Shown piece after piece: positions 24,001 through 30,000 of a DNA stretch of 37,506 bases. The stretch lies in IMG/VR virus record IMGVR_UViG_2802429245_000007. One strand, written 5' to 3'. This DNA is from a virus (Duplodnaviria; Heunggongvirae; Uroviricota; Caudoviricetes). The stretch's first letter is position 1; each line of letters opens with the position of its first letter. The position numbers are program-made.

Positions 24001-27000
24001 CCACGCTTTACTTCCTCGGCACCAATGCCCGCACGGCCCAGAGTTACCACGGCAACCTGTATCTGGATGAATATTTCTGGATACCGAAATTCCAGGAGTT
24101 ACGCAAAGTGGCTTCCGGTATGGCTATTCACAAAAAATGGCGACAAACCTATTTTTCCACGCCATCCAGCCTGACACACAGTGCTTATCCGTTCTGGTCC
24201 GGTGCGCTATTCAACCGTGGGCGCAACAAAGCCGATAAGGTGGACATCGACCTGTCCCACAGCAATCTGGCCCCCGGCCTGCTGTGCGCAGACGGGCAAT
24301 ACCGCCAGATAGTCACCGTGGAAGATGCGGTGCGCGGCGGCTGTAACCTGTTCGATCTCGACCAGTTGCGCATGGAGTACAGCCCGGACGAATACCAGAA
24401 CCTGCTGATGTGTGAGTTCGTGGACGATCTCGCGTCCGTGTTCCCGCTCAGCGAGCTGCAGGCGTGCATGGTGGACAGTTGGGAAGTCTGGACCGACTTT
24501 CATGCACTGGCGCTGCGCCCGTTTGGCTGGCGCGAGGTTTGGATCGGTTATGACCCGGCAAAAGGTACGCAGAACGGCGACAGCGCCGGATGCGTGGTGG
24601 TGGCACCGCCAGCCGTGCCGGGCGGTAAGTTCCGCATTCTTGAGCGTCACCAGTGGCGCGGGATGGACTTCCGCGCCCAGGCTGACGCCATCAAAAAACT
24701 GACCGAACAGTATAACGTGACCTATATCGGCATCGACTCGACCGGCGTCGGTCACGGGGTTTACGAGAACGTGAAAGCGTTTTTTCCTGCCGTCAGGGAG
24801 TTTGTCTACAACCCCAACGTTAAAAACGCCCTGGTACTCAAGGCCTACGACATTATCAGCCACCGCCGTCTGGAGTTTGACGCCGGGCACACCGACATTG
24901 CGCAGTCATTCATGGCAATCCGTCGCGCAACCACCGCCAGTGGCAACCGCCCAACCTATGAAGCCAGCCGCAGCGAAGAAGCCAGCCACGCCGATCTGGC
25001 CTGGGCAACGATGCACGCACTGTTTAACGAACCGCTGCAGGGCGAGTCCGCCAATACCAGCAATATTGTGGAGATTTTTTGATGGGAAAGAGTAAGAAAA
25101 ACCGCGCAGCGGAGATGAATCAGATCCAGCATAAAAGCCAGACTTCAGCCGAAGCATTCAGCTTCGGCGATCCCGTTCCTGTTCTGGACCGTCGCGAACT
25201 GCTGGACTATGTGGAATGCGTACAGATGGATCGCTGGTATGAGCCGCCTGTGAGTTTCGACGGCCTGGCGCGAACCTTCCGCGCCGCCGTACACCACAGC
25301 TCACCGATTGCAGTAAAGTGCAACATTCTGACCAGCACCTATATCCCTCACCCGCTGCTCAGCCAGCAGGCTTTTTCACGTTTTGTGCAGGACTATCTGG
25401 TATTTGGTAACGCCTACCTGGAGAAACGCACGAACCGCTTCGGTGAAGTTATCGCCCTTGAACCTGCGCTGGCAAAATACACCCGACGCGGATTAGACCT
25501 GGATACCTACTGGTTTGTGCAATACGGCATGACCACGCAGCCGTATCAGTTCACGAAAGGCAGCATTTTTCATCTGATGGAACCGGACATCAACCAGGAG
25601 ATCTACGGCCTGCCAGGCTATCTTTCTGCCATTCCATCCGCCCTGCTCAACGAGTCTGCCACGCTGTTCCGCCGTAAGTATTACATCAACGGCAGCCATG
25701 CAGGCTTCATCATGTACATGACCGACGCCGCGCAGAATCAGGAGGATGTGAACAATCTCCGCAACGCGATGAAAAGCGCCAAAGGTCCAGGCAACTTCCG
25801 CAACCTGTTTATGTACTCGCCTAACGGCAAAAAGGACGGCCTTCAGATCATCCCTTTGTCAGAAGTTGCGGCGAAGGATGAGTTTCTGAATATCAAGAAC
25901 GTGAGCCGTGATGACATGATGGCTGCGCACCGCGTGCCGCCGCAGATGATGGGGATTATGCCGAATAATGTTGGGGGATTTGGGGATGTGGAGAAGGCCG
26001 CAAATGTTTTTGTACGTAACGAACTATTACCATTACAAAAGAGGATGGAGGAATTTAATGATTGGCTAGGGGAAGACCTAATCACATTCAATCCATATTA
26101 TTTTACTTAACATTCGGATCCAGCCCCGAGAAAATACAAACTTTTTCAACGGGGCAACCCTCACTTACTCAACTTCCTCATAATAAATTTCCCACTGGTC
26201 ATTCATTCCTACAACTTGTTTTTCCTCGTAAGTATACTGAACTCTATCAATTTCAATCACTTTTGAGGTTCCTTCTATAAATTCCATGTCCGAAGGATTA
26301 AAAACAACCAAATTCTTTCCTTCACCAACTGTACTTGAAAATTGAATACCATCGTACCCTTCCTTTCTTATACAATCGGATATAAGTTGTGACACGCTAT
26401 ATCTACCTTCTAAGGAAGGCGGGGTTGCAGTATTAAAAATACCCGCCATTTTAGCATATGGAATCATAGCTAATAGACTGTCATCATCCTCAATGAATCC
26501 TAAAAAATTCGGGTGTGAAAAATCGAATACTTTTAATGCTCTTGCAACTCTAAAGGTGCCAATTGAAACAACATCTGTTGGATGCGGTCGAACTTCCGCA
26601 ATCGCGGTATAGCTATCTGTAGCACAATAAAGATATGAAACCCCCACTCTATTGGCCCTACCAGACGTTGCCCTAAGTGGAGGCACTGCTCCTATTTCCT
26701 TGTCTTTAAATGGAACAAATATTTTCTTTCCTTCACGGCTGAATTCTTGAAAAGCAACTTTATAACCAGCAGTTCCGACTCTTGCTCTATAGACTACCGA
26801 ACTCCCTTCAATAGTCTTAGCGAAGTTATCATCATAGCTGCTTATAATACTCCTTAACTCATCTTCAAAATCATGATAATTTCTTTCTGAAAGTTTTTTC
26901 GATAACGACTCTAAAAATGGCTGATGTGAATTCTTGATAGACATATATGGCATATTATATGTTCTATCAACTCCATATCCTGCATAAAGATTAATTTCAT

Positions 27001-30000
27001 TTTCCACATAAAAACCCATATTCCACAATTCGCCATCAAGGTCCCCAAGAGCTTCATCTTGCTCCTGTATATCTTTAGAAAAAATAAAATCATCTGCTAA
27101 AAGAAAACCCGTAAAATTATCACCACCAAAATGAGTATTATAATCAACCTCATCATAAAAATATCTCACTATAGCCTTCAGCAAGTTATGTACTTCAAGT
27201 GATTCAGTATCTAAACAAATATTATCTGAACCACAAAAAGCACAAGTACTATGAATGTTTTGCAAACGCATTAAGTTTTTAATATTTGATTCGATAATAT
27301 GATTTTCGCAGATAAACATTATAATCCCCCTTAATTACCCCTTAGATACTAATTATTGCCGTTTGGGACTGCGCGCGCAATCGTATCCCCGCCACGCCTA
27401 CCCGCTTTATGCAGTGGTTTTCATGCGCCTGCATGACATATGCAACAGCCCGCCAGCTCAGGCTGGCATCAGCGAAAACGATCGTCATACTATCATGCGA
27501 TCTCATGCGCCATATGAAGTTTTCCTGACACAGCCTTGGGTTGGGATAACACCTAACTCAGGAAGATTTTTTGTGTGTTTGTAACCCGCACCTAGAGTTT
27601 ACCAATCCATGTTTGCGGCATTATCCATCTCACGAGTTAAGTAATTAACCAATAAGTCCATATTCCTTTCTGATTTCATCGCCTCCGCATAGGTTCCATT
27701 AGTTACGTAAGATAGTATTAAAGGACATCCAGATTCAATATAAATTTTTGCTGGGGACAGTTCTCCCTGCCACAAATTTTCAAGAAAATCGTTAATTAAT
27801 TGCATTGCTTCAGGTGCCAAAAAATGCACACCATTTCCAAACTTGAAACGTTCTTTATTTTCTCGATGAGGCAGCAATAGTGGCACAGCCCCTACACTTG
27901 AGTGAAATTCCAATGCTTGCCCATCCTTACCGAAGGCGCCATGGGCTACAAAATTACGCACCTGTTTTCTGAGTATAAGTAAACGATCATAGAATGATTT
28001 TAGACTGGAAGAGTTAATATCAATGGCTAATTTGAATTTCTCCCCCCATTCTTTTCCAACTTTATCAGCCACATCATTCCCATTTTTTATCTCACCCTTC
28101 AAGATTGCAATAAGAATGAAAACATGCTCGGTCCAATTGAAAAATGACTCAATTGCAGACGTTGCTAACCACATAGCCTCTCTTCGGAGTTCAATTATCT
28201 TATTTGATTGTTCAAAAGTGGATTGTAACAGGCTGAAAAAATTATCAGACTTAAACTCACTATCAACTTCCAGTTTAGACTCTTGGCCAGCAGCAACTTC
28301 ATCAAGCTTCTGTTTATATAGCTCTAAAAAATAGCAAAACCTATCATAAAGAGAATTAGCATTGTTATTAACATTTAGATTTGAAGTCTTTGCTGCATTG
28401 TCTGCAAGCGAGTCAAAAAATTTCGTAGCAGCTTTAACCCCTGCGCAAATATGTCTCAAAACAGTTTTAGCTTGCTCTATATCATCATCACTCTTGATAA
28501 ATATATCTAAACCAAGTTTACGATGTTCTATAATTACGACAGTCCCATCAATCCGGACTGGGATAGAAAAAGAAATCTTCTCATCAACCCCACGATTTTT
28601 AAATTTCAGTAAATCTACCAAAAGAAAATAAACGAGATAATACGGAGGTAATGAGTCTCCCAAACCCGAGCGCTTACCCCAAAAATATTCATCAAGCTCG
28701 GCAGACTCCATTGTCCCTATGACTCTTCGGACGCGTTCTTCAACTTTAGCCAGATCCATTCCCCACACCGCCTTTCAATATCACTTAAGGTATTACAGCC
28801 AATGACATCGATTAAATACAGCGTAGATAATAGGCAACTTGCTACTGTTTTCAAGGGCTTTCTGTTTCAATCCTTAGTTGACCTTGCTGACGCGAGAATC
28901 TAGTTCTCACGCCAGCAACGCCCCTGCTGCTAACCGGGAAGATCCATTACACGGTTATATTCATGGGCACGAATTTTCGCCATCAACTCATCAGTCAGCT
29001 CTGAAACCCACTGCAGAGCCAGCCCCTTCTCTTCATCACTACACTCACTAGCCGCTACAAGCTTAAGAAAAAAATCAATGCGCTGGAGCTTCAAAGACTC
29101 CAAAAAATAGTCCTGCATCTTTCCTCCTATGACACCAAAACAATACTGTATACATAACCACTGTTTATATTTACAGTATATAATAATCTTACTGATGTAA
29201 AACGTTTTTTTACGCTCATCAGCCTGATATGCCTGGTATTATTAAGAGCACGAATTGTTAACCCGCGTAATTAATACAGGTTCCGCCACTTGTCATCTTC
29301 CTGCAAACGCTGGTTCCGATAGAAGATACGCAGGCCTGCTCCTGACGGAATACTGCCGCCGCGAAGGAGTAAATCGACCTCTTTCTCGCTGCCATCAAAT
29401 CCTCTGGACCTCAGTTCATAGACGAGCTGCTGTCGCTGATGGTCTGTAATTCGCTGTTTGTAGTCTTTACGCCGTTTCGGTTTCACCTGGCGTAACCTTG
29501 CAGCCAGTTCCCGGCGCTCTTTTTTGCTCATACTGTGCAGGTAATCGTGCAACTCCTTGTCATTCATACGGGTAATATCCGTTCTGGAGTCCCCATCAGC
29601 TGATTTGTCTTTCCCTTGTTGGTTCAAATTTTCAGCAAGGGGACAGTTATTGCCACGAGTCCAAGGGGCGCAAGCGCCCTGGTCGGCTGCCGCCTCCTGA
29701 ACGTCAACGGCCTTACGAACCATTTTCCACTTCACGGCATGAGTGCAGATCTTGCCCTCTGCAATGGGTGACCAGATGCCATAAATACGAATGCCGTGAT
29801 CGCCATAGGCGGTCGGCTCTTCGTTAATTTCATAAGCGGTTCTGATGAGGTGATATTTGCGGGGAACCAGTACGCCGCCCTGCTTCATGATGTAGGTGGC
29901 AAAACAACCAGCATCAGCAGCAGCCAGGATGGCATCAAGGCGCGGGTTATCCAGTACCGGCGCACCTGCTTTTTTGTCGCCCTGTTGCCTTGCCGCCTGA

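Follow-up and report, generated by a model that had tools for sequence, protein, structure and literature searches.

A solo RES-domain protein encoded between cos and the portal gene of a P2-like prophage is a predicted anti-phage defence of the aRES type

The window considered here, the whole 37,506-nt stretch of IMG/VR record IMGVR_UViG_2802429245_000007, is a nearly complete P2-like prophage with its tail and head genes included. Its subject is a gene on the minus strand that encodes a 384-amino-acid RES-domain protein, located between the portal gene Q and the cohesive-end site cos. An earlier interpretation made from the DNA alone (the sequence-only reading) had placed an AT-rich open reading frame (ORF) of this length at 26165-27319, between the portal gene and cos, in a slot said to be empty in P2, and all of this agrees with what is found at the locus. 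The GC content is 0.37-0.38 over 26001-27500, which covers the RES gene, versus 0.53-0.60 in the flanking structural genes, and the corresponding cos-Q interval of P2 measures 167 bp and contains only the terminator tQ. The features of the locus are the following.

25079-26110, plus strand: portal gene Q, the left edge of the cargo slot (ORF; called 'phage portal protein' in near-identical E. coli prophages)
26111-26164, no strand: 54-bp spacer between the convergent Q and RES genes, with an inverted repeat GCCCCG...CGGGGC (read from the sequence)
26165-27319, minus strand: RES gene, 384 amino acids, ATG start (ORF; Pfam RES match; hhalign match to the aRES protein of E. coli UC5)
26165-26287, minus strand: C-terminal tail, residues 345-384, and stop codon (alignment to relatives)
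26288-26803, minus strand: RES catalytic domain of the ADP-ribosyltransferase (ART) superfamily, residues 173-344
26804-27208, minus strand: helical N-terminal domain, residues 38-172, HEPN/RES-NTD1-like, a presumed sensor or regulator
27209-27319, minus strand: predicted zinc-ribbon module, residues 1-37, C4-x2-H7...C26-x2-C29 (conservation in 40 relatives)
27325-27332, minus strand: ribosome-binding site AAGGGGGA, 5 nt 5' of the ATG of the RES gene (read from the sequence)
27352-27380, minus strand: candidate weak sigma-70 promoter, TTGCGC-N17-AATAAT (kept in three alleles)
27380-27398, minus strand: cos cohesive-end 19-mer, GGCGTGGCGGGGATACGAT on the minus strand (alignment with P2)

The reading frame of the RES gene is intact, the length of the protein is that of its family, and a 99%-identical copy is named 'RES family NAD+ phosphorylase' in RefSeq. 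The inverted repeat in the 54-bp spacer between Q and the RES gene was not called by a terminator scan.

The assignment of the C-terminal half to the RES fold is supported at several levels. The RES-like motifs quoted in the sequence-only reading are all present in the translation (G220-R-A-N-R-V-G226-x4-Y231-C-A233 and A239-I-A-E242, followed by D323-G-I-Q-F-S-S329 and N336-L-V-V-F340), and the Pfam comparison that it had called for gave a match of residues 213-344 to RES (PF08808) with E=4.2e-18. The same Pfam domain is found in all 40 members of an alignment of relatives, which share 28-80% identity with the window protein. The catalytic domain begins near residue 173, at an invariant Y-R178-A-R180-x-G motif; since this motif belongs to the catalytic half, the N-terminal module comprises about 172 residues and not the approximately 190 given before. 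An AlphaFold2 model built from the alignment of the relatives (pLDDT 90.5, pTM 0.87; predicted local and template-modelling confidence, respectively) consists of two packed domains. A Foldseek search with this model returned the toxin MbcT (6FKG) with a probability of 1.00 and then ParT, and in the structure comparison the best match was the NAD+ (nicotinamide adenine dinucleotide) phosphorylase MbcT, followed by the NADase NatT. Beyond the RES domain, Y362 in the C-terminal tail is nearly invariant in the 40 relatives.

With regard to the N-terminal half, all 40 relatives have C4, C26 and C29, with either H or C at position 7, and this CxxH/C...CxxC pattern is a predicted zinc ribbon. C35 is not conserved in the same set. 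Of the four N-terminal cysteines listed earlier as C4, C27, C30 and C36, the first was numbered correctly and the other three were off by one. The ribbon is followed by a mostly helical domain in which R52, E57, Y60, G65 and N147 are invariant. The description of this N-terminal part as novel does not hold, since an architecture of zinc ribbon, HEPN/RES-NTD1 and RES was already noted in 2013 (Anantharaman et al., Table 2, PMC3710099), at a time when an RNase activity was still predicted for RES (PMC3710099).

Stand-alone RES proteins with a role in defence have recently been described under the name aRES by Osterman, Hurieva, Yirmiya, Hochhauser, Itkin, Malitsky and Sorek (Sorek laboratory, 28 January 2026; bioRxiv 10.64898/2026.01.28.702374). 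According to this preprint, aRES proteins have 300-600 amino acids and a PF18870-type N-terminal domain, for which the authors required an HHsearch probability >80% to PF18870, and they are encoded in defence islands with no partner gene. Three such proteins, which originate from E. coli UC5, K. pneumoniae and E. chengduensis, guard E. coli from diverse phages, with growth arrest. In cells carrying aRES, infection by T7 leads to the loss of NAD+ and the formation of nicotinamide and ADP-ribose-1''-phosphate (ADPR-1''-P), the latter measured as the major product, and the substitutions R182A, R184A, R215A, Y225A, E236A and S334A each result in a loss of defence (Fig. 1E of the preprint). The phage countermeasures reported in the same work are NARP2, NARP1 together with a Macro-domain phosphatase, and aRad1 inhibitors; NARP1, a common phage pathway for rebuilding NAD+, does not use ADPR-1''-P as a substrate.

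The window protein resembles aRES in being the product of a single gene with a zinc ribbon, a helical N-terminal domain and a RES domain, in falling within the class of 300-600 residues and in its association with defence loci. When the UC5 sequence, taken from Table S4 of the preprint, was compared by hhalign with the family of the window protein, the two were collinear over 321 columns (query 1-344, target 4-357) with a probability of 99.6% and E=6e-24. A direct BLASTP alignment of the two proteins covered residues 93-343 with 29% identity (E=2e-14). Furthermore, the six UC5 residues essential for defence, R182, R184, R215, Y225, E236 and S334, align with R178, R180, R221, Y231, E242 and S329 of the window protein, which are invariant in the 40 relatives, and the CxxC...CxxC pattern is likewise present in the validated aRES proteins. 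Since full-length homology is accompanied by the retention of all six essential residues, the window protein appears to be a divergent member of the aRES family, or at least to represent a sister clade. It differs from UC5 aRES in its length (384 versus 459 residues), with a shorter C-terminal tail and no insert, and its clade rides P2-like prophages, a setting that is unmentioned in the preprint.

A further difference from aRES concerns the helical N-terminal domain. PF18870 (HEPN_RES_NTD1) is detected by hmmscan in the two tested aRES proteins that were scanned, UC5 and K. pneumoniae (E=3.6e-4 and 2.7e-10), whereas the corresponding domain of the window protein falls below this threshold. 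More distant relatives with the same length and layout do match PF18870 by hmmscan. Profile-profile comparisons by hhalign gave 96% (E=4.7e-9) between the N-terminus of the family and the N-termini of PF18870-positive proteins, 91.7% (E=7.6e-7, query residues 20-147) between the whole-family profile and the PF18870-matched stretches of eight proteins, and 93.3% between the family and the N-termini of the three aRES proteins, a signal for which the zinc-ribbon region is needed, as it is this module that contains most of the N-terminal homology that can be detected. The resemblance to the HEPN/RES-NTD1 proteins of 2013 (PMC3710099, PF18870) consists of a shared layout and of these profile-profile values of 91.7-96%, whereas the domain of the present clade escapes the Pfam hidden Markov model (HMM). 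Additionally, 1.84 billion representatives were searched exhaustively by HMMER with residues 1-172 alone, which retrieved 98 proteins, or about 100 clusters at 50% identity. Among the 60 near-full-length matches that were scanned, RES was present in 58, and HEPN and PF18870 in none; within this set the domain was found fused only to RES and never to HEPN. It is rather unlikely, though conceivable, that the helical domain of this clade, beyond the zinc ribbon, is a sensor separate from HEPN/RES-NTD1 and not a diverged form of it. The clade would then amount to an aRES-like type of its own, tuned to another phage cue and specialised as portable cargo of P2-like phages, as the three cargo slots occupied by relatives would suggest, and it would have been missed by the published aRES census, which required a match to PF18870.

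On these grounds it is quite likely that the RES gene, a cargo gene of a P2-like prophage, encodes an aRES-type anti-phage defence consisting of one protein, a prediction that leans on homology. The earlier proposal of a solo RES effector joined to a sensor or regulatory domain, and a candidate for NAD+-depleting abortive infection, gains support in the same way from the RES fold and motifs, the full-length homology to aRES, the six residues, the lack of a conserved partner and the emptiness of the slot in P2. Several results weigh against this interpretation. PF18870 went unmatched by hmmscan at E<=0.1 in the window protein and the 40 close relatives, and likewise in all 60 of the wider relatives. 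Once the zinc ribbon was removed, hhalign gave no significant match either to the PF18870-positive relatives or to aRES; the positive control, a comparison between two PF18870-positive sets, reached only 6.6% in this stripped form, and the test thus has little power and says little either way. The tested aRES proteins share only 29% identity with the window protein, and this over a partial local alignment. A profile search of the sequences in the PDB recovered no RES toxin, which indicates that the RES domain is divergent; the RES toxins were recovered by structure comparison only. PADLOC 2.0.0 (2023), PHROGs and NCBIfam yielded no defence assignment for the protein, with the NCBIfam model Res_ParT_toxin scoring 11.8 bits against a cut-off of 110. 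A scan for consensus promoters found none upstream of the RES gene. Finally, a defence function for the window protein and its clade is a prediction drawn from their homologues.

The mechanism that may be proposed for the protein draws on the aRES experiments and on the biochemistry of MbcT, NatT and Res. In the lysogen, the RES protein would be made at a low level and in an inactive state, the N-terminal module that packs on the RES domain in the model probably holding the activity off in cis. Infection by a second phage would switch the protein on, with the faster-evolving N-terminal domain as the likely sensor. The activated protein would then phosphorolyse NAD+ to nicotinamide and ADPR-1''-P, and the ensuing collapse of NAD+ would arrest growth and leave the invader unable to replicate, a form of abortive infection that would protect the lysogen population and the prophage. 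The SIR2 effectors DSR1 and DSR2 and the TIR and SEFIR effectors similarly cause an infection-triggered collapse of NAD+ and growth arrest; unlike these, aRES-type proteins have an ART/RES fold and would yield ADPR-1''-P and not ADP-ribose, a product that, according to the preprint, makes the effect resistant to NARP1.

A different activity is conceivable for the same fold. The protein could be an ADP-ribosyltransferase similar to ParT, modifying a specific host or phage macromolecule (for instance Prs, RNA polymerase or a nucleic acid) for the purpose of defence or lysogenic conversion, and ParT does appear among the Foldseek matches. However, the top structural match is a NAD+ phosphorylase and the next a NADase, the sequence homology is to aRES, for which ADPR-1''-P was measured as the major product, and the R/Y/E/S constellation is that of the aRES active site. 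Moreover, ParT of the ParST system moves ADP-ribose onto Prs and is paired with ParS, whereas nothing at this locus points to a protein target. This alternative is considered improbable.

A string search of the window for the P2 cos 19-mer with <=3 mismatches gave no match, the site having 5 mismatches, and cos was placed by aligning the reverse complement of 27300-27620 with the joined ends of P2 (NC_001895). The aligned partner of the window 19-mer is the P2 cosR/cosL junction; GGCGTGGCGGGGATACGAT in the window and GGCGAGGCGGGGAAAGCAC in P2 are identical at 14 of the 19 positions, and both flanks are conserved. Across 77 deposited P2-like phage records, 27370-27514 is the sole conserved part of 26100-27620. 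This DNA search of deposited phage genomes matched the cos block and not the RES gene, and tblastn gave two weak RES matches. With cos at 27380-27398, the RES gene belongs to the left-arm side, in the interval that separates cos from Q.

The interval between gpA and gpQ is known as the defence hotspot of P2, the old/tin locus (Rousset et al. 2022, PMC9122126; also Nucleic Acids Res 2026, PMC13586616), and the window gene conforms to the cargo of this hotspot in that it is AT-rich, belongs to a slot whose content varies between genomes and is flanked by the conserved genes gpA and gpQ. An entry 'RES', WP_077758113, is listed for the gpA-gpQ interval in Table S5A of Rousset et al. 2022 (PMC9122126), and this protein is the 82%-identical allele of the window RES protein (locus L002); it is catalogued in that study, in which no sign of its having been tested was found. 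Nevertheless, cos separates the RES gene, on its left-arm side, from the right-arm genes old and tin, and among E. coli prophages cos is the exact breakpoint of homology between cargo genes that assort independently. The cos-Q interval is a cargo site of its own, which assorts independently of the old/tin side.

In E. coli L725 (locus L003, 1983-3861), the Q-cos slot is occupied by genes for a 355-amino-acid hypothetical protein, a STAS-like/DUF4325 protein and a 162-amino-acid hypothetical protein, and despite this different cargo the prophage shares its right-arm neighbour with the window. A cassette given as 'hypothetical + DUF4325 + hypothetical' in Table S5A of Rousset et al. 2022 may be that of L725.

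The RES gene appears to act alone. Of 5,426 complete E. coli genomes, 6 contain it, in each case in the Q-cos slot, and across cos from it these genomes carry either a 141-amino-acid ORF and DinI or a KAP NTPase. The Q-cos slot is also the site of a 57%-identical E. coli allele on a contig of an NCBI assembly, where two other ORFs lie across cos. More remote members of the clade are found elsewhere: a 51%-identical relative in Yersinia adjoins the integrase of a 186-like prophage, and relatives in Proteus and in a related metagenome-assembled genome follow ogr, at the opposite prophage end. Three slots of P2-like prophages are thus used by these relatives, namely Q-cos, int-att and ogr-att. 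Still more distant relatives adjoin Gabija-like, type II restriction-modification and ArdA genes, and another adjoins a giant Eco57I/helicase gene. The neighbours are not conserved in the metagenomic contexts either, and across 11 genomic contexts no conserved partner gene was found. In the window itself, the ORF and domain scan detected no gene of the Xre/helix-turn-helix (HTH) or COG5642 (DUF2384) type near the RES gene, in keeping with the earlier remark that no partner antitoxin could be recognised nearby.

Two of these contexts include other genes that seem to be uncharacterised cargo. In Proteus (locus L006, 5254-5907), a DUF3223 gene is divergent from the RES relative at the ogr end. 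In Yersinia (locus L004, 8356-9690), a gene for a domainless protein of 444 amino acids lies between int and the CI repressor gene and adjoins the RES relative.

The lack of a partner bears on the proposal that the RES protein is the toxin of a toxin-antitoxin (TA) addiction module that stabilises the prophage, with a small upstream ORF (27342-27506, minus strand) or an RNA as the antitoxin. The nearest solved structures are all TA toxins, and the RES fold with conserved R, E and S is shared with the toxins of type II RES-Xre systems (MbcT of M. tuberculosis, Res/PrsT of P. putida, NatT of P. aeruginosa and VPA0770). The 54-amino-acid ORF is directly upstream on the same strand and is annotated as hypothetical in one RefSeq genome (WP_164965840). 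However, this ORF spans cos, and its DNA is kept in the 77 phage records and in about 1,100 E. coli genomes without RES; as conserved cos DNA that tracks cos and not RES, it was rejected as an antitoxin, and it is most likely an annotation artefact. RES-Xre toxins have an adjacent Xre/COG5642 antitoxin, which the window gene lacks, and no neighbour is conserved among the relatives found in other slots and taxa. The window protein, with its additional N-terminal module of 172 residues, is about double the size of TA toxins of about 150-250 residues. Its control is presumed to act in cis and to be triggered by infection, whereas that of the TA toxins depends on antitoxin degradation, and the homologous aRES proteins act alone. 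An addiction toxin is therefore regarded as very improbable. The same 54-amino-acid ORF is also found fused as a 62-residue N-terminal extension in a database entry of 446 amino acids (P0005).

The independent assortment of cargo across cos likewise bears on a possible two-gene system, in which the RES gene would function together with the HEPN-like gene of 389 amino acids at 27599-28768, on the other side of cos, the two being co-transcribed in the prophage. Both genes are AT-rich and share a strand, with 279 bp between them, only the 389-amino-acid gene is preceded by a promoter-like site, and N-terminal domains common to HEPN and RES proteins are known (PMC3710099). Against this, the best 10 of 1,106 matching E. 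coli records contain the 389-amino-acid gene without RES, one of these ten carrying other cargo in the Q-cos slot, and no record spans both genes. The other RES alleles examined all have different right-hand neighbours, homology breaks exactly at cos, and the family of the 389-amino-acid protein has more than 1,000 members, as opposed to about 100 in the RES clade. A HEPN and RES pair was rejected on the basis of this independent assortment and deserves hardly any credence. The 389-amino-acid protein was also compared with the 'Putative HEPN' pFR103 tested by Rousset et al., and this identity was ruled out, as pFR103 is a different protein.

For the RES gene compared with its 82%-identical allele, the ratio of nonsynonymous to synonymous substitution rates (dN/dS) is 0.13 for the whole gene, 0.22 for the N-terminal module and 0.06 for the RES half. 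The gene is under purifying selection throughout, with the N-terminus evolving faster, as expected of a sensor. Upstream of the ribosome-binding site, both hexamers of TTGCGC-N17-AATAAT and the distance between them are kept in alleles of 99%, 80% and 57% protein identity, in a surrounding spacer that has diverged. This element, which scores below the threshold of the consensus scan, is a candidate weak promoter. The first T of its candidate -35 hexamer is the last base of the cos 19-mer; because the -35 overlaps the cohesive end in this way, the putative promoter would be whole only in circular or integrated DNA. That the RES gene is a decaying or silent passenger, as its rarity in E. coli, its AT-richness (and hence likely silencing by H-NS) and the failure to find a strong promoter might suggest, is scarcely credible given the full-length frame of family length, the low dN/dS, above all in the catalytic half, the intact set of catalytic residues, the good ribosome-binding site and the conserved -10-like hexamer.

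The remaining landmarks of the prophage that place the RES gene in its wider context are as follows.

22340-23173, minus strand: scaffold gene O (ORF)
23316-25082, plus strand: terminase gene P (ORF)
29271-31712, minus strand: replication gene A, encoding gpA (ORF)
32716-33624, minus strand: Dam methylase (D12) (ORF and domain match)
from 36376, strand not stated: integrase

Some further genes of the window also deserve mention. An ORF of 584 amino acids (15930-17684, plus strand) lies in an island of 31-34% GC within the tail/baseplate region and matches ApeA, a HEPN defence protein, in PADLOC (E=1.4e-13), with no match in Pfam or PHROG; this ApeA-like ORF is a second candidate defence cargo of the prophage. 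Beside the tail genes, in an island of 34-37% GC, an Acyl_transf_3 protein of 331 amino acids (10185-11180, plus strand; E=3e-21) is probably an O-antigen or surface acyltransferase for lysogenic conversion at a second cargo site. A PAPS-reductase-like gene (31709-32719, minus strand; Pfam E=1e-33), which also matches SspD, BrxP and DndC in PADLOC, is directly upstream of gene A and overlaps the Dam methylase gene by 4 nt.

Novelty of kind is not supported for the RES gene, as accounts of its architecture, of the hotspot and of the defence function date from 2013, 2022 and 2026, respectively. What appears to be new is the existence of a divergent clade overlooked by the PF18870 HMM, PADLOC 2023 and PHROGs, the recurrence of its members as cargo of P2-like prophages in three slots, and the cos-Q interval as an independent cargo site.

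If the proposed reading of the RES gene as an aRES-type defence is correct, defence by NAD+ phosphorolysis would be moved by temperate P2-like phages, beyond the chromosomal defence islands, and the aRES family would include a divergent clade that the Pfam PF18870 HMM, PADLOC 2023 and PHROGs overlook. The short interval from cos to the portal gene would be a cargo slot independent of the classical old/tin side. With regard to annotation, prophage genes named 'RES family NAD+ phosphorylase' that lack an antitoxin would be better read as defence genes than as orphan TA toxins. The faster-evolving N-terminal domain is a natural place to seek the trigger of aRES, and a comparison between this clade and the tested aRES proteins could help to reveal what is sensed.

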